Below are positions 1 to 12,945 of a DNA stretch of 12,945 nucleotides, piece by piece. The translations under genes and the position numbers were made by a program. How positions within the stretch are numbered: position 1 is the stretch's first letter; each line of letters begins with the position of its first letter. The notes below the pieces were generated by a model that ran no database searches, was not told the DNA's origin, and worked only from the letters and a program-made list of their open reading frames with translations. The stretch is from a virus (lineage: Duplodnaviria > Heunggongvirae > Uroviricota > Caudoviricetes): the IMG/VR virus record IMGVR_UViG_2778261277_000020, positions 1 through 12,945 of that record, one strand, 5' to 3'.

Positions 1-1026
1 TTACTTGGAATATTTTCTTGGAATATTTTCAGGTAACGGGACATCAAGTGTTGGTGAAACTTTAACCTTCCTGTCATAGATTAGCACTTGCCCTTCGGTT
101 TTGTGACCAGAGAAAAGTTGCTTATCCCGGCTGCTTCCTTCATAGTCTGAAATTCCTTTCGCCTTCAGATCATGAAAGGTGAAGTCGGTTAAAATACCTG
201 AAATTTTGCCTGCGCGATTTCTTGCTTCTACCCACATTTCGTTAAAGCCTTTGTACATATATCGGTTGCCGTATTGATTGCTGATTACATAGGCGGATGT
301 TGGTAACTGTTTTGCTTTTTCGATCGCCGCCTGTAATCGTGGACTCCATGCTTTTATCTGTTTTTTCCCTGTTTTCCCTTGCTGGATAAAGATCCCGTCG
401 TTTCCAATCTGCTCCCATTTCAGCGATAACACATCGGAAACCCTCGCTGCACACAGATAGGCAATTTCCATTGCGATAAAAACAGGAAGAGGTGCAACGC
501 TTAATACTGCCTGGTATTCTTTGTCGGTTACATATCGTTCGCGGTTTTTGGCCTTGAATTTACTTACACCTGCACATGGGTTACCCTTCACGTACCCTCG
601 CTCATACCCCCAACTGTAAACGCGGGACATACTGCTTTTTTCATGGTTGGCTTGCGTTTTACTCTGTTCCCCTCTCTTGTCCATGTATCGACGGATGTGT
701 TCTGGTTTTATGGAATCTGCCGGCACCTTACCGAATACGGCAAGCAACTTTTTTTGATGTTGCAGATAATCTTTTTGTGTTCTTGGACTGAGGTCACTGT
801 AATAGGCGCTGGCGAGGAATTTTCCCCACAAACGACCGAATGTCATTGCGCGATCGCGATTATTTACAGTTTCCTCATACTTTTTCCATAAAGCAGCTAA
901 ACCATCCTTGATGGCGGTTAGTGTGACAGATTCTCTGGATGTTGGTTTCCATACATAACTATATTTATTTGGGTATACATTTGGAGGTAGTTTTTCGTGT
1001 TCAGGATTTTTCCTTCGTCTTCCCAT
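1..1026 (-). CDS. int: Phage integrase, tyrosine recombinase of the lambda Int family (complete, 341 aa)
   Basis: Full-length minus-strand ORF; N-terminus MGRRRK... resembles lambda Int N-terminal arm-binding region; C-terminal part has H/R/Y-containing segments (FHDLKAKG, GHKTEGQVLIYDRK) typical of the catalytic domain; start codon overlaps the xis stop (TAATG). Terminal position in a leftward operon, as in lambdoid phages. Confidence 0.9.
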   Translation of the reverse strand: MGRRRKNPEHEKLPPNVYPNKYSYVWKPTSRESVTLTAIKDGLAALWKKYEETVNNRDRAMTFGRLWGKFLASAYYSDLSPRTQKDYLQHQKKLLAVFGKVPADSIKPEHIRRYMDKRGEQSKTQANHEKSSMSRVYSWGYERGYVKGNPCAGVSKFKAKNRERYVTDKEYQAVLSVAPLPVFIAMEIAYLCAARVSDVLSLKWEQIGNDGIFIQQGKTGKKQIKAWSPRLQAAIEKAKQLPTSAYVISNQYGNRYMYKGFNEMWVEARNRAGKISGILTDFTFHDLKAKGISDYEGSSRDKQLFSGHKTEGQVLIYDRKVKVSPTLDVPLPENIPRKYSK

Positions 1027-1229
1027 TAGATTGCACCAAAATTCGGCTCTACCTCGCGTGGTGGTAAAGTTTTATTGCAGGTAAATAGATCCCGGCTGAC
1101 AATCGGTTTGCCACTACGATTGGTATAGAACGGAAGCCCGTTTTCCGTTAACCATTTTCGCTGGTGGCTTGCATATTTGCAGCCCGTTAATATCAGCAAT
1201 TCATCTTCGGTTAAAAATAAGCTGCTCAT
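1026..1229 (-). CDS. xis: Excisionase-like small DNA-binding protein (67 aa)
   Basis: Small basic ORF immediately upstream of, and translationally coupled to, int (stop/start overlap TAATG at 1024-1028). Position and size fit Xis; family assignment from memory only. Confidence 0.6.
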   Translation of the reverse strand: MSSLFLTEDELLILTGCKYASHQRKWLTENGLPFYTNRSGKPIVSRDLFTCNKTLPPREVEPNFGAI

Positions 1230-1246
1230 AGCTATATCTCATAACC

Positions 1247-1272
1247 GCCGCTAACTATATACGGTTAGCGGC
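1247..1272 (-). other. Perfect 9-bp inverted repeat (GCCGCTAAC / GTTAGCGGC, 8-nt loop) in the exonuclease-xis intergenic leader
   Basis: Read directly from sequence; no U-tract follows on the transcribed (minus) strand, so it is not a canonical intrinsic terminator. Confidence 0.4.
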
Positions 1273-1287
1273 AATTAGGGTTGAACA

Positions 1288-3672
1288 TTAAAAATCAGCC
1301 TGACTCGGGATCAGTTTTTGCCAGATAACTGAAACGTATTTTGCCTGGTAACGGGCGTCATCAAGTGCATTATGGCGCTCACCTTCGAATGGAATAGCCG
1401 TTCTGGCATCGAAGTCTATGGCTTTCCCCAGCTCAACGATTGTGCGTACATCGCGATCGTTGTGGTAGCGCCACGGGCAGGGGATCCCCTGCCGTTCATA
1501 TGAACGGCGTAAAATTACGTTGTCGAAGTTGGCTCCATTTCCCCAGACCTGAACAAAAAATTCACCGGAGTTTTCGGCGATAAATTCCCGCAATTGCAGT
1601 AGTGCATCATCTAACGGGATTTCATCGGTCAGAATGGTAGATTGCGCCTCGCGTGATTGCTTAAGCCACCATTTAATGGTGCCACGATCAATGACTCCGC
1701 CAGCAGTATCCAGATCGATGGTCTTACTAAATTCCGGTCCCATATCTCCGGTTTGCGGATCGAAAAATATTGCACCTATTGAGATAATCGGCGCATCAGG
1801 ATTTTTTCCCATCGTTTCAAGGTCGATCATTAGATGGTCACACGTCCTGCTGGTGGATGTGATAACGTGATGACCATTCACCGTAATTAAGGGATCTGTC
1901 GTCTCGCCAGTTTCACTATCGCTGGCGTGGTCCTGAGCGCTGCCAGCATTCTCCTTGTGTGGATGTTCAGCGCCTTCCATTTCCTCCGGATCTTTTTCCT
2001 GAGCTTCAGCCTGATTTTCTTTATCGAATGTTTCCTGGTATGTTGCGTCGCCCATCACTGCGCCACAATCAGGGCAGTTGCCTCCTCCCGGCTGACCGCA
2101 GGTATCGCAGACTTTCTCCTGCACAGGTTGATTTTCGACGTCGCTATTTTCCGTTTTTTCGACTTCATCTGAGAGGATTTGATGGCCGGGAATCCATTTC
2201 GGATCATTCGGGTCGCTAATCCCTTCAACAAATTCTCCGCGAGAGGCAGCCAGCAACTTATCGGCGTCAGGCTGGCTGACGTTTGCTGCCTGCATAATTT
2301 TGTTTACTTCGTTAGCGGTAACTTTTACCTGATTGACGGGATTTACCTGTGACTGAGCATCCAGCGGCTGCGTGTCCTGATGATGTTCAGTTGCATCCGG
2401 TTCCATTGTTTCAGCCGCTGCCTGTTCACATGCCATTGCGCCAGATGGTTGCGGTTTTTCTGCATCATTTTTTTCTTCTTCTGTTTCTTGCCCGGCAGCC
2501 AGCTCGCGGTTTATTTCTTCCAGAATATCTTTTTCCGGTGTATGTCGGGCAGCCGTGAGTGTTTCCTGGCTGGGGTTCTCGTGATCAGTCTCCGTTAAAT
2601 GGGCGTTGATATACCCCTGAAGGCGTCCCGGGTAGTGATAAAATTCAGGGTGTGCGCTTCGGATAAGTGCAAAAATAGCGGCGCGAGAGTAGTCCAGGAT
2701 ACCCGGGGTTGAGCGAAGTGCTGCTGACCACTCCCTGAACGGACTTTCTTTCTTCCGGACGATTTCTTTTGCGCGGCGATAAACGCTGCCAGGAATGTCA
2801 TAAATATTAAAATCCATCGGAAGCGTGGCTGCTGCAATCTCCAGATCCAGTGTATCGAGGGTGTGTACTAAATCCGGATTACGATCGGTTTTGTTTCCGC
2901 CTCCGGCATTTGCACCGGAAGCCGTACGGGTGATACGCGAAACACGATTTCCTTTCATCCACTCTTTTGTCAGCAGGCCGCGATCGGTGTAGTCAGCGTC
3001 CAGGTATGCTTCGAAAAAAGCAGTCATTAATCCCAGACTGGAATTAACGGGATTAGGGAAAACTTTGTCAGTGTCGCGAACCAGTTTGTGGTGGTCGCGA
3101 AGTTCCAGTGGGTCGAGCAGGCTGGTTTTGTGCGAAATAGCCAGGGCAGTAACTGCCGGTAGCTCTTCAGCCCGAGCGATATGTAATGCCTGAAGTTCAT
3201 CTCTTGAAACGTGTGTTACTGGTTTTTCGCTGCCGTGTTGAGCAAGCCAACGGATTGCCACCTCCTGACCGGAAACTGGCAGGAGCATGCTCTCCTCAAT
3301 CTCCGTCATGTCTTCGCCGTTAACATTGGTATTTTCGGTGCTGGCTGGTTTGTTCTGCACAGAGGGAGATGGCGCGGTGAATACCATTGTGATGCCATCT
3401 TCACCGCCTTTTTCATAGCGGTTACAGAATTCGGTATCAAACACGCCTTCTGGTGGAAGGTCATTCACAACAGGCAAATGGACGCGAACAGGTTTTTTAA
3501 AGTCCTCTTCGTCGTAACCAGCATCATCCATTGCGACATTACCGCGGGAAACTGCAACAGATAATTTTTTTGCTGTAGTCCAGTAAAAACCTCCTTTAAT
3601 ACCGAGACGTTTTCTGACTTTGTCATTTTTGGCTTCGTAATGGAGTGCAATGTCTTGTTTGTCAGTGCTCAT
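1288..3672 (-). CDS. Exodeoxyribonuclease VIII-like protein (794 aa): RecE-like N-terminal/central region fused to a C-terminal DEDDh (DnaQ-like) 3'-5' exonuclease domain
   Basis: ATG at 3672 with GAGG 9 nt upstream. Central segments ([57 protein letters not shown], Cys-x2-Cys...Cys-x2-Cys [17 protein letters not shown]) match my memory of the E. coli Rac RecE N-terminal region. The C-terminal ~180 aa carry DEDDh motifs (MIDLETMG; [10 protein letters not shown]; HNALDDARY). Confidence 0.8.
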
Positions 3673-3707
3673 TGTTTTTAACCTCAGCTAAGATTAAAAT
3701 TCCTCCG

Positions 3708-3767
3708 GAATGATGAATAAATGTCCCAGGTTCATCATTCTGGCCTGCACTGAGTGCAGGCCTTTTT
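3708..3767 (+). terminator. Two adjacent hairpins; the second (GGCCTGCAC...GTGCAGGCC followed by T5 at 3763-3767) has plus-strand intrinsic-terminator geometry
   Basis: Hairpin A: 10-bp perfect stem GAATGATGAA / TTCATCATTC (3708-3740). Hairpin B: GC-rich stem 3742-3762 then TTTTT. The T-run is on the plus strand, antisense to the leftward operon. Confidence 0.4.
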
Positions 3768-3772
3768 ACCAT

Positions 3773-4048
3773 TCAGATTTCATCTTTTAGTTCTGTCCCA
3801 ATCAGAGAGGCCAGATACATGTCTTTTTTTTCTGCAGGCAGATTCTTAATGATATGCACCAGACACATTTTTTTAACACCATCGTTAAGTGTTTTAACAT
3901 TTCCTGAGAAACCGTAGATATCAACCACAGTGAATGGGGTTTCTTTATTTTCTGTCTTAATTACGTAGCCAATACGCTTTTCTTCAAGATTAACCTCGTG
4001 AACAATATTATCAGCAGTAACAGTAGTGACTTCATAACTGGTAATCAT
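3773..4048 (-). CDS. Hypothetical protein (91 aa)
   Basis: ATG at 4048 preceded by AGGAGAAAAAT (strong SD); ORF track start at 4096 is an upstream non-ATG extension. No recognisable motif. Confidence 0.55.
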   Translation of the reverse strand: MITSYEVTTVTADNIVHEVNLEEKRIGYVIKTENKETPFTVVDIYGFSGNVKTLNDGVKKMCLVHIIKNLPAEKKDMYLASLIGTELKDEI

Positions 4049-4132
4049 ATTTTTCTCCTTAATTAAGGTTGAGTGAATCCCTGCCATTGCTGGCATATAA
4101 GAATGAAACCGTACATTTGTGACGTAGCTGCT

Positions 4133-4324
4133 TTAAATACTTGTCGTGACTTCTTTATTATCCTGACGAATAACTTTATCAACCTGATAACAGTTACCTG
4201 GAATTTTCTGTTCTTCTGCAGCAGCCATGCATTCTTTCATGGAGTTGTATATTCCTGTAACTATATCAACCGGTTCACCGGAAACAAGAAAAACAGTCAT
4301 AACAAGCGCGAATACTGTATTCAT
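4133..4324 (-). CDS. Small protein (63 aa) with hydrophobic N-terminus (signal peptide or single TM helix), two Cys
   Basis: ATG at 4324 with GGAGA 5 nt upstream; start overlaps stop of upstream gene (TGATG). N-terminus MNTVFALVMTVFLVSG is hydrophobic. Confidence 0.5.
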   Translation of the reverse strand: MNTVFALVMTVFLVSGEPVDIVTGIYNSMKECMAAAEEQKIPGNCYQVDKVIRQDNKEVTTSI

Positions 4325-4509
4325 CAGTGTCTCCAGAAAATACCAAGTCTGAGAAGAGCCATTCTGGAAAGTATGGAATTATCATTGAGAAAATAAGGCT
4401 CATATTTCCTCATATTAATGGCATCTTCAGTAAACTCACGGTTACTGATTTGAACACCAATTTCAAAACAACCTTCAGATGTATTGATGTTGGGTAATAA
4501 CGTTTCCAT
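4324..4509 (-). CDS. Hypothetical protein (61 aa)
   Basis: ATG at 4509 with GAGGAA 8 nt upstream; lies 14 nt downstream of the rha stop; same-strand operon context. Confidence 0.45.
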   Translation of the reverse strand: METLLPNINTSEGCFEIGVQISNREFTEDAINMRKYEPYFLNDNSILSRMALLRLGIFWRH

Positions 4510-4523
4510 TATCGTTTCCTCGA

Positions 4524-5078
4524 TCAATGGATATTAAGTAACTGCTCCACGGTCATATTTTTAATTACGTCCCTGTTCACAAGCGTCCATCCCTGTTTCT
4601 CCAGATAAAAGCGGAAGGTATCCAGGGTGCAGACCATTGCACCATCAGGAACGGTTTCAGTGAATTTGATGTTGCCGTGTTCGTCGAGACGGATAACCAG
4701 GGTACGTCCGTCCCCGTGAATCATTTTGTCGGGAGACGGGGCGTTATTCTGGCGCAGTTCTTTCTCCATGCGATCGAACTCAGCGATGTAGGCTTCTTTA
4801 AATGCAGCGGCTTTTTTGCCGGTGAAGCCCATCACCAGGAAAACGAAGCCGTTTTTGGTGATTTGGTACATAGGGAGTTTGCGTCCTGTTGAGTCGGTGT
4901 ATTCGCTCGACACAAAATTGTGCTCAGTGAATTTTGCTGAACAGTCCAGATTGCGAATTTTATCCAACACTCGTTCGTGGCGTTTACCAAAGAACTCGGC
5001 GATCGCAACAGACGTAGTGACAGCGCGACCATTTTCGATGGTTACATCAGGGTGATAAATGGTAGGGGTAGTAGCCAT
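4524..5078 (-). CDS. rha: Rha-family phage regulatory protein (184 aa)
   Basis: N-terminal ~100 aa (IENGRAVTTSVAIAEFFGKRHERVLDKIRNLDCS...MYQITKNGFVFLVMGFTGKKAAAFKEAYIAEF) match the Rha domain as I recall it. ATG at 5078 with GGAGG 8 nt upstream. The 282-aa ORF in the track is an in-frame upstream extension that contains a terminator hairpin. Confidence 0.8.
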   Translation of the reverse strand: MATTPTIYHPDVTIENGRAVTTSVAIAEFFGKRHERVLDKIRNLDCSAKFTEHNFVSSEYTDSTGRKLPMYQITKNGFVFLVMGFTGKKAAAFKEAYIAEFDRMEKELRQNNAPSPDKMIHGDGRTLVIRLDEHGNIKFTETVPDGAMVCTLDTFRFYLEKQGWTLVNRDVIKNMTVEQLLNIH

Positions 5079-5244
5079 GATGGCAGCCTCCGCGATGAAT
5101 TTAATTAACTCACCACCAGAGGTGCTAATCTCATGGGTGGTGAGACGCACAGGGTTAGCACTACCGGTCATCACGGAACCCGGCCAGCCTTGCGGCTGCC
5201 CTGCACGCCTCACCATAATGCGAATGTGGCTGTGCTTAACGCAT

Positions 5245-5267
5245 AAAAAAACCGCCTGAGCGCGGTT
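5245..5267 (-). terminator. Minus-strand intrinsic-terminator-like hairpin (6-bp stem AACCGC / GCGGTT, 6-nt loop) followed by U7
   Basis: Plus-strand sequence AAAAAAACCGCCTGAGCGCGGTT at 5245-5267; on the minus strand this is stem-loop plus TTTTTTT. Confidence 0.5.
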
Positions 5268-5948
5268 ATGCGCCGTGATTGACTTCGGGGTGCTAATCCC
5301 GGCACCCGTTTTATGAGGTGCAGATGAACTATAATTCCACCCGTACTGGTTTTCAATAGCTACATTCAACATTTTCTCTTACCCTTCATCACCGAAGTGA
5401 ACTTTGTTGATGCAGTGCCTGGTGCCTCCAGGTGACGTTAACCAGTTAACAATTAACGCCGGAATACAGAAGTATGCCCGTTACGCCCCGTAAAAGACCA
5501 CTTTACGGTTTTAACTGTTCCGCGTGCGCTTAGCCGCATTCACCGCATCACAAAATTCACTTTAAAAAGGGTGGCAGAGCAGTCACGGAGTAGAACTGAT
5601 GCCACCAAAGACTACACATGGGTATTGTGGCGGGGCTGTCACTTAAGCGTATGGTCAACCTGACAACCCGGTGCATTTTCTGGAGCAATGGAGGAAACCC
5701 CAGCCATACTTACCGCCGCGCCATTTCGCGGATTGCCACAACCGGAAGCGCACGTTCGAGGAAATCTAACGACAAGCCTTCTAAGGGAAAGAGCTTCGCC
5801 GTACGCTTTCGCGTTATGCCCTGACTTTTCAGGGAAATATCCTTTCAGTAAACTGTCAGTACCGGATTCTTATCCGTGTCCGGCGCACGACCGCACGTGA
5901 CAGCGTGTTGGTCTCCATTTTTAACCCAGAACCTCAATGGAGGATAAA

Positions 5949-6158
5949 ATGCCAAACAAAAAAAGAAATCCGCTTATTGAAAAACAGATTGAATGCCTGG
6001 TAAATCAACTCAGGCAATCAGGGTTATTAAAAACTCATTCAGAGTTGAGGCTCACAGAATCAGCATTCGACGATAAATTAAATAATGTCCTTTATAATGG
6101 CATTATTGATTTTAATCGTTCTGTTGGTCGCCGCGGCCCTGCTGGTGTTTCCTTATAA
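5949..6158 (+). CDS. Hypothetical small protein (69 aa), AT-rich
   Basis: ATG at 5949 with GGAGGA at 5939-5944; convergent with the next gene, stop codons back to back (TAA 6156-6158 / TAA on minus at 6159-6161). Confidence 0.5.
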   Translation: MPNKKRNPLIEKQIECLVNQLRQSGLLKTHSELRLTESAFDDKLNNVLYNGIIDFNRSVGRRGPAGVSL

Positions 6159-6809
6159 TTACCAGTCAATCCAGAGCGGACCGTGTTCAGCGTAAATATA
6201 ACTGTACACATCCAGATTATATTTGTGGTCTGTTAAGAACAGGCCGCAAATACATGCCGAAGCTTCCAGGGCAGCGGCTCTGTTACTGAATAACCATGTA
6301 GCAACATTCCAGCGTTTTTCTGCATCCCAGTCTTTCTCAAGGCCTGATACCATGAAGAAACCGTTAGTGTTGCCATCAAATAATTCTGTTTCCAGATTTT
6401 TAAGCAATGCCTGATGGACTCTTGCCAGGTATTCCGCCGGAATTTCGCCACGAATTCTGATGAGATTGTCATAAACAAACATGTTCCCCGCATATGGCGA
6501 TTTTTCTTTCTTGTTTTTTAAACCAGCATCATGAGCAAACTGATCAATTTCTTCTTCCGTTGGTTTCGTATTGATGTTTTGCGCTGTCGTTTCTGCAATT
6601 TTATTTGCCACACTCTCTGAGTCGTGTTTATTTATAGACGCACAGAAATACAATCCGGTAAACGCATCGCGCACATTACGAGCCATATTATCAGTGTCTT
6701 TTTTCGTTACCGATTCCAATTCAAGTTCGTTCAGACGATGACGAAGTGTGTGTGCTGCAATCTCTTGGATTGAAGGAGGTAAATCTTTAAATTCCATCGT
6801 CAACCTCAT
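6159..6809 (-). CDS. Hypothetical protein (216 aa from ATG 6809; 212 aa if ATG 6797), AT-rich, no TM segment
   Basis: ATG at 6809 overlaps the stop of the upstream 50-aa gene (TGATG); the alternative ATG at 6797 has GAGG 7 nt upstream. No motif I can name. Confidence 0.65.
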   Translation of the reverse strand: MRLTMEFKDLPPSIQEIAAHTLRHRLNELELESVTKKDTDNMARNVRDAFTGLYFCASINKHDSESVANKIAETTAQNINTKPTEEEIDQFAHDAGLKNKKEKSPYAGNMFVYDNLIRIRGEIPAEYLARVHQALLKNLETELFDGNTNGFFMVSGLEKDWDAEKRWNVATWLFSNRAAALEASACICGLFLTDHKYNLDVYSYIYAEHGPLWIDW

Positions 6810-6961
6810 CAGTCAGTGTTTCTGGCTAACCAGCGACGCGCGCCAGCTGCGGTTTTAAACGTTTTGCTTCTGGTATACGTCATCGCGGTAAACGTGCCGT
6901 CCAGGTTGGGGAATACTCCGCATACCAGAGATTCGTTGTTGCCAAGATTGAGCGTATCCAT
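6809..6961 (-). CDS. Hypothetical small protein (50 aa) with basic C-terminus
   Basis: ATG at 6961 with GAGG 5 nt upstream; first gene leftward of the OL-like palindrome; stop overlaps next start. Confidence 0.45.
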   Translation of the reverse strand: MDTLNLGNNESLVCGVFPNLDGTFTAMTYTRSKTFKTAAGARRWLARNTD

Positions 6962-7139
6962 GTTGACCTCATTTCCCCTTAACGCCGGGTAGCGGAACAA
7001 AAACCTGCTGCATAGTTATTAAAGTTGAACCCTGCCGTCATGTTCTTACGCCTCGGGCTGGCTACTTAACCCCTGACCACTGCCTGGTAACTCGAAGTAT
7101 TGCCTGGCGTTCTGTGGGCGGGGTGGGTTGGTGAATACA

Positions 7140-7186
7140 ATCTACAATTAAAAACTGTTTTATGTCAACAGTTTTTAATTGTAGAT
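7140..7186. promoter_or_regulatory. 47-bp perfect palindrome (20-bp arms ATCTACAATTAAAAACTGTT, 7-bp spacer): candidate OL-like operator
   Basis: Read directly; shares the half-site TACAAT(A/T)AAAAACTGT with the palindrome at 8178-8218; lies between the terminator after parE and the first leftward gene. Confidence 0.6.
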
Positions 7187-7192
7187 CTGAGC

Positions 7193-7215
7193 AAAAAAAA
7201 TCCCTCGAAAGAGGG
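7193..7215 (-). terminator. Minus-strand intrinsic-terminator-like hairpin (CCCTC-GAAA-GAGGG) followed by U8, downstream of parE
   Basis: Plus strand AAAAAAAATCCCTCGAAAGAGGG at 7193-7215; on the minus strand this is stem-loop then 8 U; about 20 nt past the parE stop (7235). Confidence 0.5.
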
Positions 7216-7234
7216 AGTATGAAAATTGTTCAGC

Positions 7235-7522
7235 TCAGATAGAGGAGGGAAATTGTCGGCGAGCATGTATCACGCTTACAATCTCAATGCTTGAAGCAGC
7301 TACTCTGTACAGGATTATGTAGTTAGGGTGGGTCACTATCTCTCTCACCCCTGAAACCCGTTCGCTTAGTGGATATAGGTACGGATGCTCAGATAGAGGT
7401 AATACCGATGTTTCAATGCGTATTTTTAGTCTGCGCGCTGCCGGTGGGTTCTCCTTGGCGATGTAAGTTATGATCTGACGCAAATCATCGCGAGCAGATG
7501 GTAGCCATAAAATGGGTAACAT
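7235..7522 (-). CDS. parE: ParE/RelE-family toxin (95 aa)
   Basis: Sequence LRQIITYIAKENPPAARRL...IVSVIHARRQFP is typical of ParE toxins; start overlaps the antitoxin stop (TAATG). Confidence 0.85.
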   Translation of the reverse strand: MLPILWLPSARDDLRQIITYIAKENPPAARRLKIRIETSVLPLSEHPYLYPLSERVSGVREIVTHPNYIILYRVAASSIEIVSVIHARRQFPSSI

Positions 7523-7713
7523 TACTCGCTCCTGTTAGTTACAACGATTTGAGCAATAAGATTTTCCATTTCAGCCATTACCTCGTCATGTGGAATTGCG
7601 GGACGAGGGTCTGCAAGGCTCGACGCTACTTTAGCGCGCAACCATTCGTTGTAACTGTTTTCTTGTTCGATAGTTTCGAATTCTGAAACTATCGGAGAAA
7701 GGGCTGTACCCAT
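7522..7713 (-). CDS. paaA: PaaA2-like antitoxin (63 aa)
   Basis: SEFETIEQENSYNEWLRAKVASSLADPRPAIPHDEV matches my memory of PaaA2 from the E. coli O157 paaR2-paaA2-parE2 module; GAGGAG SD 7 nt upstream of ATG 7713. Confidence 0.75.
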   Translation of the reverse strand: MGTALSPIVSEFETIEQENSYNEWLRAKVASSLADPRPAIPHDEVMAEMENLIAQIVVTNRSE

Positions 7714-7740
7714 GGCATAACTCCTCTTCTTGTACTGTGG

Positions 7741-8142
7741 TCACGCCCGGCGGCTTTTTTGTGCCGCCAGCCACCGGGCAATGGTTTCTTCCATTGATTT
7801 TTTCTTGTCTTTGATTTCTTGAAGCATTTTTTCTTGGTCTTCCTCAGGGAACGCACTAAAAGCCTGGAGCAGTTCGCGTTGGCGAGGACCAATTTTCATC
7901 GTGTCAGGGGTGAAAATTTGCTCCCCCTCTTCAGGAGGCAATAAAAACCAATGCAATGGATGCCCTGTAACCTCAACCAGTTTATCCAAACTTGAGGCTT
8001 TAGGTGTAGCCTTACCGCTGACCCATTGTTGAACAGTTTGTTGTGTCACACCAATTCTACGGGCAAGCTCAGCCTGGCTCCATCCAGTTTCCTGAAGAAG
8101 CTTGCTGATTCTGTACATAGATACTTCTAGGGCGCTCATCAT
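7741..8142 (-). CDS. paaR: PaaR2-like / CI-like HTH (XRE family) transcriptional repressor (133 aa)
   Basis: N-terminal HTH (WSQAELARRIGVTQQTVQQWVSG); first gene of the three-gene cassette; divergent from a cro-like gene across a palindromic operator; no SD before the ATG (possibly leaderless). Confidence 0.75.
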   Translation of the reverse strand: MMSALEVSMYRISKLLQETGWSQAELARRIGVTQQTVQQWVSGKATPKASSLDKLVEVTGHPLHWFLLPPEEGEQIFTPDTMKIGPRQRELLQAFSAFPEEDQEKMLQEIKDKKKSMEETIARWLAAQKSRRA

Positions 8143-8177
8143 TATTCAATTTTACAGGTAAATACTGTTAAAAGCAT

Positions 8178-8218
8178 TACAATAAAAAACTGTTGATCAA
8201 ATACAGTTTTTTATTGTA
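8178..8218. promoter_or_regulatory. 41-bp perfect palindrome (16-bp arms TACAATAAAAAACTGT, 9-bp spacer TGATCAAAT) in the divergent paaR / ydaS control region: candidate OR-like operator
   Basis: Read directly; sits between paaR start (8142) and ydaS start (8251); a TATAGT -10-like hexamer at 8228-8233 lies just downstream on the plus strand. Confidence 0.6.
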
Positions 8219-8250
8219 GCCTTTGCCTATAGTTTTTAGAGGAGGGGAAA

Positions 8251-8523
8251 ATGCTAGATAGCACTCGCGAAAAAATTAGGCAGAAATACACTCAGGCTGA
8301 AATAGGTCGTTATATGGGGGTCGCCCAACAGACCGTTTGGCAATGGTTTAGCTTTGGCGTCCCCCCAAAGCAGGTAATTCCGCTATGTCAGCTAATGAAG
8401 TGGGAAGTTACCCCGCATGAAATTCGCCCAGACATTTACCCTAACCCAACTGACGGTTTACCTGTTGGATGTAAGGCTAACACACCAAATGCACCGGAGA
8501 TGATTCATGAAAATCAAGCATGA
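8251..8523 (+). CDS. ydaS: Cro-like HTH protein of the YdaS family (90 aa)
   Basis: Strong SD GAGGAGGGG then ATG 8251; HTH AEIGRYMGVAQQTVWQW and the EIRPDI motif I associate with YdaS/Cro-like proteins; divergent from the repressor gene. Confidence 0.75.
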   Translation: MLDSTREKIRQKYTQAEIGRYMGVAQQTVWQWFSFGVPPKQVIPLCQLMKWEVTPHEIRPDIYPNPTDGLPVGCKANTPNAPEMIHENQA

Positions 8524-8932
8524 ACATATCCGCATGGCGATGAATGCCTGGGCGCATCCGGACGGCGAAAAAGTACCGGCTGCGAAAATTACCAAAGCGT
8601 ATTTCGAGCTGGGAATGACGTTCCCGGAACTGTATGACGACAGCCATCCGGAAGCCCTGGCTCGCAATACTCAGAAAATTTTCCGCTGGGTGGAGAAAGA
8701 CACCCCTGATGCGGTTAAAAAAATTCAGGCGTTGTTACCAGCTATCGAAAAAGCAATGCCACCTCTGCTGGTGGCCCGAATGCGCAGCCATAGCTCAGCC
8801 TATTTTCGGGAACTGGTGGAGACGCGGGAACGACTGGTGAGAGACGCTGATGATTTTGTCGCAGTGGCGATCGCTGGTTTCAACCAGATGAATCGTGGTG
8901 GCCCTGCAGGAAATATTGTGGCTGTGCATTGA
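8507..8932 (+). CDS. ydaT: YdaT-like protein (CII functional analogue), 141 aa
   Basis: Starts MKIKHEHI..., as I recall for Rac / CP-933P YdaT; overlaps ydaS by 17 nt; GGAGA SD 7 nt upstream. Confidence 0.75.
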   Translation: MKIKHEHIRMAMNAWAHPDGEKVPAAKITKAYFELGMTFPELYDDSHPEALARNTQKIFRWVEKDTPDAVKKIQALLPAIEKAMPPLLVARMRSHSSAYFRELVETRERLVRDADDFVAVAIAGFNQMNRGGPAGNIVAVH

Positions 8933-9003
8933 CTCGCAATATTCATACCGGATCACTTCCGGCAATTTGTGAGTAAAAAGATTCGGTATCAGAAGAGGTG
9001 AGT

Positions 9004-10044
9004 ATGGCTAACGCCTGGCTCAGATTATGGCATGACATGCCAAATGATCCTAAGTGGCGAACAATTTCCAGGGTGTCAGGACAGCCAATCGCAACAGTGA
9101 TGGCTGTGTATATCCACCTTCTGGTGAGCGCGTCACGAAATGTCACGACATGTCACGGCGTGTCACTACGTGGTCACATTGATGTCACGACGGAGGATTT
9201 AGCAAGTGCGCTTGATGTGACGGAAGAGGTAATTGATTCAATTTTACAGGCAATGCAGGGGCGGGTACTTGATGGAGATTTAATCTCTGGATGGGAAAAA
9301 CGCCAGGTACTGAAAGAGGACAATGGCAACGTTTCACAAACCGCGAAATCCCCGGCAGAGCGCAAGAGAGCGCAGCGCGAGAGGGAAAAATTACGAAAAC
9401 AGAATGAGGGGGGGCATGACGAGTCACGCATATGTCACGACATGTCACGACGAGTCACGACAGATAAAGATACAGATAAAGAATTAAACCCCACACATAA
9501 CGCGCGCGTGCGCGAGAGTGCTCCGACCAGTGAGTCGAATGGCGTGCCGTTGCAGGCAGCGGAACCTGATTACCTGGAAGGCCTGAGCGAACCCATCGGG
9601 AAATTTCCGATGACTGATGGCTGGCATCCGTCGCCGGATTTTCGACGGCGGGCAGCTCTGTGGGGAGTGGCTCTGCCGGAGCCGGAATTTACACCAGCTG
9701 AACTTGCCGCCTTCCGGGACTACTGGGCAGCGGAGGGTAAAGTTTTCACACAGGTTCAGTGGGAGCAGAAATTCGCCCGTCACGTAAATCACGTCAGGGC
9801 GCAGGTTAAACCAGTCAGCAAGGGGGGGAACCATGCAGCAGCACCAGGTGGCACCGCATCACGGGCAGTTCAGGAAATTCGGGCAGCACGTGAGCAGTGG
9901 GAACGTGAAAACGGATTTATCAGCGACGGAAACGGCGTGGAAGCTGTGGGAACTCATGGGGGAGGTTTATTCGAACCGCTGGACCCAGAAGAACGGGGCC
10001 GCACCTTCGAAGCTCTGGATTGCACAGATTGGTGCGATGACTGA
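9004..10044 (+). CDS. Replication initiator, lambda O-like (YdaU / DUF1376-type N-terminal domain), 346 aa
   Basis: ATG 9004 with AGAGG 5 nt upstream; N-terminus [36 protein letters not shown]; two iteron clusters inside the gene, as for lambda ori within O. Confidence 0.7.
9132..9190 (+). repeat. Iteron cluster 1: six direct repeats with GTCAC core at about 10-11-bp spacing
   Basis: CGTCACGAAA TGTCACGACA TGTCACGGCG TGTCACTACG TGGTCACATT GATGTCACGA read directly. Confidence 0.6.
9423..9482 (+). repeat. Iteron cluster 2 (four (T/A)GTCACGAC repeats, 10-bp spacing) followed by AT-rich direct repeat CAGATAAAGA x2: probable origin core
   Basis: GAGTCACGCA TATGTCACGA CATGTCACGA CGAGTCACGA CAGATAAAGATACAGATAAAGA read directly; iterons plus adjacent AT-rich tract is the classical lambdoid ori layout. 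Confidence 0.6.
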
Positions 10045-10510
10045 GCAGCAAATCCGACAGGTCTGCCGCCAGTGCATGGACCGCTGCCGGGCGGGTGAAA
10101 CATGGCCTCCGGACCTGGCTGAGTTTGTGGCGCTGATTTCGGAGAGTGGGGCAAATCCATTCGGTCTGACGGTGGATGCTGTGATGGAGGAGTACCGCCG
10201 CTGGCGCAACGACTCCTGGCGATACGACGGAAGCGATAAATACCCGTGGTCTCAGCCTGTGCTGTATCACATTTGCCTCGAGATGCGGGCAAAAGGGGTT
10301 GAGCGTCAGATGACCGAAGGGGAGTTAAAACGACTTGCAGAACGGCAACTGGCGAAATGGGCAAAACATGTTGGTATGGGCCTGAGTGTTCCGCCTGTCC
10401 GGCGACAACTGGCTGCACCAAAACGCCCGTCGGGACCAACGCCAGTTGAGTTGCTGAAACAGGAGTATGAACGCCGGAAAGCGGCTGGTTTTGTTGGAGT
10501 TGAGAAGTAA
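9833..10510 (+). CDS. Replication protein, lambda P-like (helicase loader), about 225 aa; start uncertain
   Basis: C-terminal half ([40 protein letters not shown]...[16 protein letters not shown]) resembles lambda P as I recall it. ATG 9833 has a G-rich SD (AGGGGGGG, 4-nt spacer) but implies a 212-nt out-of-frame overlap with the O-like gene; alternative starts at 9956 or 10037. Confidence 0.6.
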
Positions 10511-10532
10511 TTTTTACCGGGAGGAAATTTTA

Positions 10533-11303
10533 ATGGAAACTGTTTTTGATGCACTGAAAGCAATGGGAAAAGCCACGTCGGTGGAACTGGCTACGCGACT
10601 TGATATCAGTCGTGAAGAAGTGCTGAACGAGCTGTGGGAACTCAAAAGAAATGGCGTCGTTGATAAAACTGGTCACACCTGGTTTCTGGCTGGCGAAGGT
10701 GAATCCCGGGTAACCGAAGAGCGGCCAGTAAAATCTGAAGCACAGGATATGCTGACCGGGGAGGTCGAACAAAAAGTTACCGCAGACATGATGATTGAGT
10801 TTATCGGTCAGGAGGGGGCTAAAACGTGTGAGGAACTGGCGGGTAAGTTCGGTGTCAGTACTCGCAAAGTTGCTTCCACGCTGGCTGTGGTAACCGCAAC
10901 GGGGCGGCTGGCACGCGTTAATCAGAACGGTAAATTTCGTTACTGCATGCCGGGCGATAAGTTACCAGCAGAGCCGAAATCCGTGCCGGTAACGGAAAAT
11001 GATGGTAAGGCCTTTCCTCAGCCAGCAGGTGTTGCGTTACCAGTACAGGAAGGGGCAACACAGGAAGATATAAAAACAGAAACTGTAGCGGACATTGTGC
11101 AATCGTTGCCATCGTTTACTGAAACGCGAGCGGATGACCTGGTTTTACCATCGCTGCATATGGCAAACCGCGAATTGCGTCGGGCGAAAAATCATGTTCA
11201 GAAGTGGGGGCGTGTCTGCGCCGCGCTGCGGGAGCTGAACAAGCACCGGGATATTGTTCGACATATTACGGATTCTTCCCGCCGTGTTGCATCGGAAAAG
11301 TGA
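10533..11303 (+). CDS. Hypothetical protein (256 aa) with two winged-helix-like segments
   Basis: ATG 10533 with GGGAGG 8 nt upstream; two segments with wHTH-like pattern (ATSVELATRLDISREEVLNELWELKRNGVV; KTCEELAGKFGVSTRKVASTLAVVTATGRLARV). Confidence 0.6.
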   Translation: METVFDALKAMGKATSVELATRLDISREEVLNELWELKRNGVVDKTGHTWFLAGEGESRVTEERPVKSEAQDMLTGEVEQKVTADMMIEFIGQEGAKTCEELAGKFGVSTRKVASTLAVVTATGRLARVNQNGKFRYCMPGDKLPAEPKSVPVTENDGKAFPQPAGVALPVQEGATQEDIKTETVADIVQSLPSFTETRADDLVLPSLHMANRELRRAKNHVQKWGRVCAALRELNKHRDIVRHITDSSRRVASEK

Positions 11304-11318
11304 TTGCCGGAGGCGCTT

Positions 11319-11741
11319 ATGGCAAAAGTATTTACACAAGAAGAGCGGGAAAAAATTAAAGGGCAGGTGGTTGAACTCGTGCGCCAGAGCGGTCGTGAGA
11401 CGTTACGGCAACTGGAAGCCAAGACAGGTGCGACAAGATATCTGATGAGCGTTCTCGCCAGAGAGCTGGCTGCCAGTGGCGATGTATACAACTCTGGTTA
11501 CGGGTTATTCCCGTCTGAACAGGCGCGTAAGGACTGGCAAAATGCCCGTAAAAAGCTCTCAAGGGCAAAGCTGAAGAAACCATCTGCGGTTGATCCGGAC
11601 CTTATCTGGTCATTACCAGACGGAGAAATACGTCGCTACGACAGTCGCCTAAACATAATCTGTCGCGAGTGCCGGAAGAGCGAAGTTATGCAGCGTGTAC
11701 TGGCTTTCTATCAGGGTAATTTTCAGGAGGCGGTACTGTGA
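11319..11741 (+). CDS. Hypothetical protein (140 aa)
   Basis: ATG 11319 with GGAGG 5 nt upstream; no recognised motif. Confidence 0.55.
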   Translation: MAKVFTQEEREKIKGQVVELVRQSGRETLRQLEAKTGATRYLMSVLARELAASGDVYNSGYGLFPSEQARKDWQNARKKLSRAKLKKPSAVDPDLIWSLPDGEIRRYDSRLNIICRECRKSEVMQRVLAFYQGNFQEAVL

Positions 11742-11798
11742 GTGAAATTAGCTATCAGGCTTCAATTACCGCTGGCATTCGCATCAAAGGAGAGGAGC

Positions 11799-12155
11799 AT
11801 GGAAATAAAACCAGAAGATGAGTTAAGCAATATCGTTTTATTTCCGGTAAAAGAGGATGACCCTCGTAATCAGGTTAATTTTCTTTATGAGCCATCGGAA
11901 AGACCATATTGCCATCACGCTTCTGTCCGGGTTGACGAAAAAGAGCGTCAGGTCCGCTGTAAAATCTGCGGTGCAGTTGTGGAGCCATTTGACTGGATGC
12001 TCTCTGTGGCGAAAAGAGAAACCAGACTGGCAGATGATGTAAGGCTATTGCGCCAGGAGGAACAGGAAAGACGGAAAAATATAGAAAAGTTAATTCAGAT
12101 TGAGCGTAACGCGAAAGCGCGGATACGCAGGGTGACAAAATCCAGAACTGAATAA
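11799..12155 (+). CDS. Hypothetical protein (118 aa) with Cys/His cluster (CHH...CKIC), possible zinc ribbon
   Basis: ATG 11799 with AAGGAGAGG upstream; C-terminal half charged and helical-looking. Confidence 0.55.
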   Translation: MEIKPEDELSNIVLFPVKEDDPRNQVNFLYEPSERPYCHHASVRVDEKERQVRCKICGAVVEPFDWMLSVAKRETRLADDVRLLRQEEQERRKNIEKLIQIERNAKARIRRVTKSRTE

Positions 12156-12250
12156 TTAAATTTAGCACTGTTAAAAATTCGATCCTTAACCGGAGGGATT
12201 TCTGCACCCTCAGAACATCAGGAGGCCGCCCGAAAGGGCGGTAACAAATA

Positions 12251-12727
12251 ATGCAAGAAATCAAAGAAAATATCAGGCAACAGCTTTACGGGTTTTATAT
12301 TGCTTATGATTTGTGGCTGAAGAACGGGGCAAAACCCGGCGGAGTGTTTTCTCAAAATTATGGTTTATGCGCCAATCTTTTCGATTATCTCACATTAATT
12401 GGTACCCCCTGTGAGGCAGCGCTGGAGCAATTACACGCTGATTTCAGAAGTGCCGGGCTGAATGAGGCGTTGCCGTTTAACGAGGGTAAAGAGCATTACC
12501 ATGAAGAAAGAGGGCACAACATGTGCCATATGAATCCGGCACGAGTGGCGTGGGTCAGGGCGCAGACAGGGCAGCCAGCGCCGGAAGGACTGGTTAAAGC
12601 GGTGCGCTTCTATGAACAGGTTAAGCGTGAAAATCCGCCAGTCGAAACCGGAGCATGGAAAGACGCTGTTGACTGGGTTCTCGAAGAGGCTTGTCAGGCT
12701 GTAAACATTCGCATCAAAGGAGAGTGA
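12251..12727 (+). CDS. Hypothetical protein (158 aa)
   Basis: Long ORF with consistent coding look; GGAGG lies 25 nt upstream, separated from the ATG by a GNRA-loop hairpin. Confidence 0.6.
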   Translation: MQEIKENIRQQLYGFYIAYDLWLKNGAKPGGVFSQNYGLCANLFDYLTLIGTPCEAALEQLHADFRSAGLNEALPFNEGKEHYHEERGHNMCHMNPARVAWVRAQTGQPAPEGLVKAVRFYEQVKRENPPVETGAWKDAVDWVLEEACQAVNIRIKGE

Positions 12728-12729
12728 GA

Positions 12730-12945
12730 ATGCAAATTTCACCGGTTACTCTTCGTGTTGCGAAGGCGTTTATATCCAGACATCACCGACACAATAAACC
12801 ACCTGTTGGGCATAAATTCAGCATTGGTCTGATAAATGATGCCGGAGAATTGATAGGTGTGGCGACAGCTGGTCGACCTGTTGCACGACATTTGGACGAT
12901 GGATTAACGCTTGAAGTAAATCGCACATGTACCACAGGAGAACGC
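12730..12945 (+). CDS. Hypothetical protein, 5' part only (runs off the right edge)
   Basis: ATG 12730 preceded by AAAGGAGAG; open frame to the window end (MQISPVTLRVAKAFISRHHRHNKPPVGHKFSIGLINDAGELIGVATAGRPVARH...). Not in the ORF track because no stop lies within the window. Confidence 0.45.
   Translation, partial: MQISPVTLRVAKAFISRHHRHNKPPVGHKFSIGLINDAGELIGVATAGRPVARHLDDGLTLEVNRTCTTGER

Follow-up and report, generated by a model that had tools for sequence, protein, structure and literature searches.

The stretch of DNA analysed here, referred to as the window, comprises 12,945 nucleotides of a virus of the class Caudoviricetes (IMG/VR virus record IMGVR_UViG_2778261277_000020, positions 1 to 12,945) and is the left arm of a lambdoid Escherichia coli prophage; a neighbouring protein shares 100% identity with a protein cluster of E. 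coli. The gene in question lies on the minus strand at 1288..3672 and encodes 794 amino acids, in which the translated open reading frame (ORF) and matches to the Pfam families PF06630 and PF16473 reveal a RecE-type N-terminal scaffold followed by a DEDDh 3'-5' exonuclease domain. The ORF starts with ATG, preceded by a Shine-Dalgarno GAGG 9 nt upstream. It is the last gene before xis and int in a same-strand run that begins at a cI/cro-like switch; directly downstream, also on the minus strand, Pfam identified a DUF4224 excisionase-like ORF (1026-1229) and a tyrosine integrase (1-1026).

Results

A RecE-type scaffold joined to a DEDDh domain

When the 794-residue protein was compared to Pfam, PF16473 (Rv2179c-like 3'-5' exonuclease) matched amino acids 613-784 with an E-value of 1.1e-66 and a score of 224 bits, the gathering cutoff being 27 bits and the match covering profile positions 2-177 of 177. 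The second match was to PF06630 (Exonuc_VIII), at amino acids 52-189 with an E-value of 1e-34. These E-values rule out chance similarity. Full-length E. coli proteins that are 83-96% identical to the window protein carry both domains in the same way, the best match being the one at 96%. The product is thus predicted to be a functional two-module prophage protein that arose by an in-frame domain swap at about amino acids 596-614. By profile and catalytic residues it is a DexA-like member of the PF16473 family with an added RecE-type N-terminal extension; the single-domain size of that family (~170-230 amino acids) does not apply, as here the domain forms the C-terminal quarter of 794 residues.

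A preliminary description of this DNA had likened the N-terminal and central parts of the protein to RecE of the Rac prophage, and this was borne out. By BLASTP, amino acids 51-597 align with residues 43-592 of Rac RecE with 318 of 563 positions identical (56%), and no alignment to K-12 RecE was returned past RecE residue 592. Beyond that point K-12 RecE carries PF12684, a PD-(D/E)XK nuclease, at 615-850 (E 4e-28), a family that Pfam did not match in the window protein, and recT lies immediately downstream; the limits given for the nuclease domain of RecE are 564/606-866. Canonical RecE differs in its nuclease and works with RecT, as had been said. The Pfam check of the C-terminus that was proposed beforehand returned the DexA-like PF16473 and not the canonical RecE nuclease PF12684. 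Consistent with this, the NCBIfam RecE equivalog NF007259 scored 871 bits, below its cutoff of 1269, and aligned amino acids 1-597 to profile positions 1-603 of 877. Three of the four testable defining features of RecE fail, and the protein is not a RecE.

The scaffold and the junction

The Exonuc_VIII region common with RecE is encoded at 3106..3519 of the minus strand. It is followed by the best-conserved part of the scaffold, a helical core of amino acids 225-385 (2518..3000, minus strand) that was delimited by alignment, by an AlphaFold 2 (AF2) model and by substitution rates. This core recurs in the DEDDh fusion of every genus sampled, and also in a Klebsiella phage RecE that has a RecT. 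In the AF2 model, which spans amino acids 1-400 of the scaffold only, residues 170-385 were modelled as a confident helical domain with a predicted local distance difference test score (pLDDT) of 80-96, falling to about 60 beyond residue 380.

Amino acids 386-600 (1873..2517, minus strand) form an acidic, poorly conserved linker region. The composition of this region (22% aspartate plus glutamate, net charge -35) agrees with the acidic central region noted beforehand, as does the CxxC...CxxC cluster seen within it: inspection of the sequence placed CDTC at 522-525 and CPDC at 533-536, giving the four-cysteine arrangement CDTC-x7-CPDC at 2065..2109 of the minus strand. The region is not alignable outside Escherichia. 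The spacing of the four cysteines is identical in Rac RecE, and they are present in 120-121 members of a set of 121 E. coli sequences made up of the window protein and 120 clusters at 90% identity; in the alignment the cluster is absent from the fusions of other genera, so that it is limited to the Escherichia lineage and Rac RecE. It may be a zinc knuckle, though this is a putative assignment.

The point at which the two modules meet can be placed by the limits of similarity in both DNA and protein. DNA likeness to Rac recE stops at position 1886, and likeness to sb30, the gene of a stand-alone exonuclease of phage ST64B, begins at 1830; the domain-swap junction is therefore taken to be a linker of 19 residues, amino acids 596-614 (1831..1887, minus strand). 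A GHH motif recurs in the junction linkers of fusions from other genera.

The exonuclease domain

The T4 DexA-like DEDDh domain (amino acids 613-784; 1321..1836, minus strand) is defined by the PF16473 match and by a match in the Protein Data Bank (PDB). All five catalytic residues, D617, E619, D717, H767 and D772, align with the catalytic D7, E9, D119, H186 and D191 of T4 DexA; their codons occupy 1822-1824, 1816-1818, 1522-1524, 1372-1374 and 1357-1359 of the minus strand respectively. The DEDDh motifs reported earlier from the C-terminal ~180 amino acids are thus accounted for. The catalytic residues are retained in 117-121 of the 121 E. coli sequences. In the PDB sequence search with the window protein as query, the only solved structure matched was T4 DexA (8KEL/8KEN, E 4e-6), and Rv2179c gave no match at E<=0.01.

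In DexA, W152 and D169 have been proposed to recognise 5-hydroxymethylcytosine (5hmC), W152 by stacking, and D90 is a tetramer residue (PMC12153337). Neither of the two recognition residues is conserved in the window protein, where H737 stands in place of W152 and A751 in place of D169; the alignment near D169 is less certain than that near W152. Codon 737 (1462..1464, minus strand) is the most variable site within the domain among E. coli copies. Tyrosine occupies it in 85 of the 121 sequences, cysteine in 23, histidine in 8 and serine in 5, in a domain that is otherwise ~94% identical, and the codons for these four amino acids are all one nucleotide apart. In most fusions outside Escherichia the position is a tryptophan.

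The search for an annealase partner

It had been noted that no RecT- or Bet-like partner lies beside the gene, and this stands: xis directly follows, and no family of single-strand annealing proteins (SSAPs) was found in the window ORFs tested. Specifically, no annealase of RecT, Erf, Red-beta or Rad52 type was detected among those ORFs with Pfam or PHROGs, no RecT homologue was found by BLASTP in 13 fusion loci, and no SSAP Pfam family was found among 62 upstream same-strand ORFs of 8 related loci, a span that reaches the repressor genes.

On the other side of the gene lie three small ORFs, all of 63-91 amino acids, as the preliminary description had stated; its label of unknowns was mistaken, since they belong to the RacC, YdfD/DUF1482 and DicB families. 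The racC homologue (3773..4048, minus strand; 91 amino acids) is 79% identical to K-12 RacC and matches NCBIfam PRK09790. The mechanical ORF call spans 3773-4096, but translation probably begins at an internal ATG, position 4048, preceded by a strong ribosome-binding site, AAGGAG. Next come a ydfD-like gene (DUF1482; 4133-4324, minus strand; Pfam E 5.9e-21) and dicB (4324-4527, minus strand; Pfam E 7.4e-33). YdfD is annotated as a lysis protein in K-12, and DicB is a division inhibitor. The suggestion that one of these small proteins replaces the annealase is not supported, as none of the three known families is an annealase and none is conserved beside the fusions of other genera. The alternative raised with it, a role outside recombination such as DNA degradation or an arms-race nuclease, may hold and agrees with the evidence.

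The only sizeable unannotated protein of the operon is encoded by a 216-residue Ybl81-like ORF (6159-6809, minus strand). It had no match in Pfam, NCBIfam or PADLOC and no PDB sequence match below E 0.1, and among the Foldseek matches to its weak AF2 model (pLDDT 65) there was no Rad52, Red-beta, RecT or Erf structure. Proteins of this family were found only in Escherichia, save for one Salmonella entry, and elsewhere they are unlinked to the fusion. Shorter proteins of other prophages match its N-terminal ~75 amino acids.

Distribution and selection

By megablast, 4746 of the 5426 complete genomes of E. coli match the gene and at least 1081 have a near-full-length copy, and O157:H7 genomes have up to 7-9 matching places each. 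The same two Pfam domains occur in all of the best 120 protein clusters, which NCBI names 'exonuclease' or '3'-5' exoribonuclease'. The fusion is already listed in databases in thousands of copies and is neither rare nor new as a sequence. In the literature searched, no publication describing or testing it was found, Rv2179c and prophage were never mentioned together, PF16473 and DUF5051 were not mentioned, and 'Rv2179c-like' surfaced solely in unrelated phage-genome work. Near-full-length copies are present in 7 deposited phage genomes, and a phage converting to Stx2a matches from amino acid 270 onward. The gene order dicB-ydfD-exo-xis-int recurs in phage vB_EcoS-640R1 and in O157 strain 9000.

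Intact ORFs of 707-848 amino acids were found in 14 loci of public assemblies, from E. albertii, E. ruysiae, an Escherichia-like contig of a metagenome-assembled genome (MAG) and seven other genera, which include Scandinavium, Enterobacter, Atlantibacter, Citrobacter, Dryocola and Kluyvera and whose fusions are 41-65% identical to the window protein. Where downstream sequence was available and matched, int and/or xis directly follows the fusion, and several loci have an xis-like ORF in addition to the integrase. The MAG contig (L008, JAGZPX010000007.1), binned as Veillonella parvula, carries an E. coli-type dicB-ydfD-exonuclease-int block with 83% protein identity and almost certainly comes from an enterobacterial prophage that was binned wrongly. 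Immediately upstream of the fusion, the loci from Atlantibacter, Citrobacter, Dryocola and Kluyvera have a gene that encodes not RacC but a conserved protein of 112-124 amino acids, 57-96% identical across five loci (L021:9462-9800, L024:9365-9706, L025:9424-9798, L027:9458-9799 and L031:9428-9799); this protein is almost certainly the winged-helix one of the Rrf2 family that was matched by five of the upstream ORFs scanned.

The ratio of non-synonymous to synonymous substitution rates (dN/dS) was computed by region against the O157 homologue, with dS of 0.13-0.51. It was about 0.10 for amino acids 51-260, 0.14 for 261-380, about 0.38 (0.35-0.40) for the acidic linker at 381-600 and 0.16-0.21 for the exonuclease domain at 601-794. 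Purifying selection acts on all regions of the fusion. A neighbour-joining tree groups the fused domains in a single clade, distinct from four stand-alone domains, as would fit one old fusion event; since the tree lacks bootstrap support, the argument is a weak one.

Modularity of the scaffold

Amino acids 1-600 were compared to 1.84 billion representative sequences, which gave 270 matches, and those of at least 480 amino acids were classified with phmmer; a profile search with the conserved core returned almost solely short partial proteins and was not used for the census. Among the 82 representatives classified, 23 end in a RecE-type PD-(D/E)XK domain, 13 end in a DEDDh domain and 46 end otherwise or are truncated. 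This last group includes proteins in which a RecT domain directly follows the N-terminal scaffold of RecE with no nuclease between them, namely P0243 (703 amino acids) and P0370 (615 amino acids). It also includes a third C-terminal module, phrog_7838 within phrog_2489 and labelled 'exonuclease', which is found on the scaffold in P0305, P0308, P0310, P0326, P0367, P0249 and P0278; this module had no Pfam match, and its representative P0308 had no PDB sequence match.

E. coli also has a second variant of the DEDDh fusion, in which the first ~270 amino acids are unrelated to RecE, and intact copies of this variant are present in E. albertii and E. ruysiae (L009:7582-10053 and L010:9269-11740). 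The K-12 Qin pseudogene ydfE (L032:4079-4999) was considered as a fragment of the window protein and rejected: it is the N-terminal stump of the second variant, cut by IS2, and so belongs to a protein with a different N-terminus.

Discussion

Relation to known enzymes

The resemblance of the fusion to Rac RecE extends over the PF06630 region, the helical core, the acidic linker and the four-cysteine cluster, and in map terms to the racC homologue upstream and a place between the early-left genes and xis-int. RecE, however, ends in a PD-(D/E)XK nuclease of 5'-3' polarity and is followed by recT, ralR and rcbA, whereas in the window gene the whole nuclease segment has been swapped for the DEDDh 3'-5' domain and xis stands directly next to it. 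The N-terminal domain of RecE is dispensable for basic RecET recombination and is of unknown function, and full-length RecE favours linear-linear (end-to-end) recombination (PMC11610958, PMC11611040).

The exonuclease domain (amino acids 613-794) is 57-59% identical to two stand-alone phage exonucleases of ~190 amino acids, Sb30 of ST64B (Salmonella) and that of PhiR47_1 (Escherichia). The ST64B gene stands directly before xis-int and the PhiR47_1 gene at the same end of the early-left genes, and no SSAP is annotated in the flanking region shown for either. Both differ from the window protein in having no N-terminal scaffold, and both fall outside the clade of fused domains. The ST64B annotation (NC_004313) already likens Sb30 to CP-933 prophage ORFs of O157. 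The founder of PF16473, of which the window protein matches 172 of 177 profile positions, is Rv2179c of Mycobacterium tuberculosis, a chromosomal, single-domain enzyme described as an exoribonuclease.

T4 DexA belongs to the same domain family and shares all five DEDDh residues, but it is a stand-alone protein of 227 amino acids from a lytic phage, is ~27% identical and has extra loops. The E. coli protein EcD, of the same DEDDh family, is the sole E. coli member with experimental data; both DexA and EcD act on DNA 3' ends, and EcD digested T4 DNA and protected cells, for which an 'HREX' defence has been proposed (PMC12153337). EcD is nevertheless stand-alone and without a RecE scaffold, its cloning primers showing a start of MIDTET... 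and an end of ...TIPETY. These primers and a scan of viral contigs place EcD-like proteins in a different, stand-alone subgroup that is ~35-40% identical to the window domain. The tetramer residue D90 of DexA is retained here as D689 rather than lost as the HREX criterion has it, and S87 is replaced by P686. A further parallel is offered by the TONDO/ISG20-like proteins, in which a DEDDh exonuclease is combined with an unrelated auxiliary domain in prophages and other mobile elements; compared by description, they differ in belonging to the ISG20-like DEDDh subgroup, in being under 500 amino acids and in acting on the 3' UTRs (untranslated regions) of RNA phages (PMC13344964). A search of PADLOC-DB 2.0 matched no defence model, and the only, non-significant, similarity was of the acidic region to JetC (E 0.0085, 12 bits).

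Proposed role of the fusion

The reading we favour, at a little short of an even chance, is that the fusion may be an early-operon 3'-5' exonuclease acting alone on DNA ends and not a recombinase of RecET type. By analogy with lambda exo/bet and Rac recET, the gene would be transcribed as part of the early-left operon once the prophage is induced or a cell is infected, and the DEDDh domain would take nucleotides off free 3' ends using two metal ions. Its likely substrate is linear DNA, since its closest characterised relatives, DexA and EcD, act on DNA. The scaffold would probably direct the nuclease to ends of DNA, or else to some unknown partner, because it is shared with true RecE, where end-to-end recombination is boosted. 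Since the predicted polarity is opposite to that of RecE and there is no annealase, the enzyme would trim or degrade ends by itself and not in the manner of RecET or Red.

Several observations weigh against this proposal. The substrate (DNA or RNA), the polarity and the timing of expression are drawn from homology and gene order; an exoribonuclease gave PF16473 its name, and NCBI uses the same term for these proteins. The search for structural matches to the scaffold core gave no informative fold neighbour and no functional clue. Further, EcD, the sole E. coli homologue that has been tested, was reported to defend against T4, and this points towards the lysogen and not lytic growth; variation within the domain also peaks at the counterpart of a residue proposed to recognise the base, as would suit an arms race better than housekeeping. 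An alternative is that the lysogen makes the protein as a superinfection-exclusion nuclease that degrades the incoming modified-base DNA of other phages, as in HREX, with the scaffold adding targeting or regulation. We regard this as unlikely, albeit the most serious of the alternatives. That a stand-alone enzyme of the same family digested T4 DNA and protected cells (PMC12153337), that residue 737 varies as it does and that O157 genomes hold up to 7-9 matching places all speak for it, but EcD is distant in sequence and lacks the scaffold, the proposed 5hmC-recognition residues are not conserved (H737, A751), and no PADLOC model is matched. The gene moreover comes last in the early-left operon, a position that argues against expression in the lysogen, and promoter-like sites number 7 against 6.5 expected, not above background. 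If the DEDDh domain were instead to trim the 3' ends of RNA, whether of host, phage or defence-system RNAs, as do Rv2179c or the TONDOs, the family and NCBI names would agree with this, and prophage DEDDh exonucleases with auxiliary domains do defend against RNA phages (PMC13344964). This is improbable, however, given that the one solved structure matched by sequence is the DNA exonuclease DexA and that the scaffold derives from a DNA-end enzyme; the TONDOs, too, were chosen as ISG20 homologues of <500 amino acids, EcTon is plasmid-borne, and no link to the PF16473 family is shown.

We give an equally low probability to the enzyme still serving recombination, by resecting or trimming DNA ends on behalf of host RecA/RecFOR or of an annealase that is distant or has escaped recognition, for which the part of DexA in T4 intron homing might be a model. 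Purifying selection has kept the RecE scaffold, linear-linear recombination is promoted by full-length RecE (PMC11610958), DexA has a role in double-strand-break processing in T4 intron homing (PMC12153337), and the operon holds unannotated proteins such as the Ybl81-like one. Resection in the 3'-5' direction would, on the other hand, destroy the 3' tails used by annealases and RecA; no SSAP family turned up among the window ORFs tested or in the 8 related loci upstream of the fusion, and the Ybl81-like protein is restricted to Escherichia, unlinked elsewhere and without an SSAP-like fold match, its model being weak (pLDDT 65). A further idea starts from the racC homologue directly upstream. 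Rac RecE, which degrades multicopy single-stranded DNA (msDNA), sets off retron-Sen2, and the toxin RcaT is blocked by RacC; RecE and RacC have been described as a linked trigger-blocker pair (bioRxiv 10.1101/2020.06.22.160242); the fusion could likewise be a counter-defence nuclease that removes a defence nucleic acid such as retron msDNA from its free 3' end, with RacC, where present, neutralising the released toxin. We think this decidedly improbable: neither O157 strain 9000 nor vB_EcoS-640R1 has racC beside the fusion, nor does any locus outside Escherichia, the upstream genes there being Rrf2-like or others, and any action of the fusion enzyme on msDNA is hypothetical. Finally, many E. 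coli prophages are defective and related remnants exist, among them the K-12 ydfE pseudogene and the fusions of the RecE N-terminus to RecT, yet the gene is very improbable as a non-functional relic of deletion or recombination in a decaying prophage. Every region is under purifying selection (dN/dS 0.10-0.38), the catalytic residues are nearly invariant, the ORFs are intact in Escherichia and in seven other genera at 41-65% identity, and the gene is present in deposited phage genomes.

A broader and rather doubtful proposal is that the N-terminal ~600 residues of RecE might be an autonomous, exchangeable delivery module that enterobacterial phages join to various C-terminal domains, those seen on it being PD-(D/E)XK (with RecT alongside), DEDDh, the third 'exonuclease' module and RecT itself, and of which the DEDDh version would be an arms-race nuclease with residue 737 tuning the choice of substrate. 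Its targets may be the modified DNA of competing phages or the nucleic-acid component of a host defence system.

Implications

The fusion is an ordinary, abundant prophage gene with one useful implication, which concerns the N-terminal domain of RecE. As purifying selection on the scaffold persists where the RecE nuclease and RecT have been lost, the role of the scaffold is not specific to RecT or to 5'-3' resection, and the fusions could be used as natural separation-of-function variants in the study of the N-terminal two-thirds of RecE. There is also a consequence for annotation: the labels 'exodeoxyribonuclease VIII' and 'RecE' on some records of these genes wrongly imply recombination of RecET type, and a prophage in which the DEDDh fusion is the only such gene should not be counted among those with a Red/RecET-like recombinase. 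Were the enzyme in truth an exclusion or counter-defence nuclease, this would have a bearing on the ecology of O157:H7 prophages and Stx-converting phage.

Other features of the left arm

Upstream of the genes described above, the minus strand carries a cI-like repressor (7741-8142) and, between it and the early-left genes, a PaaA2 antitoxin (7522-7713) and a ParE toxin (7235-7522). Leftward of PaaA2/ParE lie small minus-strand ORFs, one of which encodes the Ybl81-like protein. In the other direction, rightward from a YdaS-like cro, there are YdaT-like, O-like, P-like, DUF1627 and DUF977 genes.

Three small RNAs on the minus strand were matched in Rfam above the gathering score: C4 antisense RNA (5133-5220), isrK (5245-5321) and DicF (5569-5620). 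C4 and isrK fall inside the 5' part of a mechanically called Ash/Rha-type regulator ORF (4524-5372, minus strand), and the true antirepressor-like gene may therefore begin further downstream. Comparable arrangements are c4-icd-ant of P1 and isrK-anrP of Gifsy.

Between the stop of the racC-like gene and the start of the exonuclease gene there is a perfect 9-bp GC-rich hairpin, GGCCTGCAC-TGA-GTGCAGGCC, at 3742-3762. A T-run follows it on the plus strand only, so that it looks like a terminator of antisense transcription and not of the operon.

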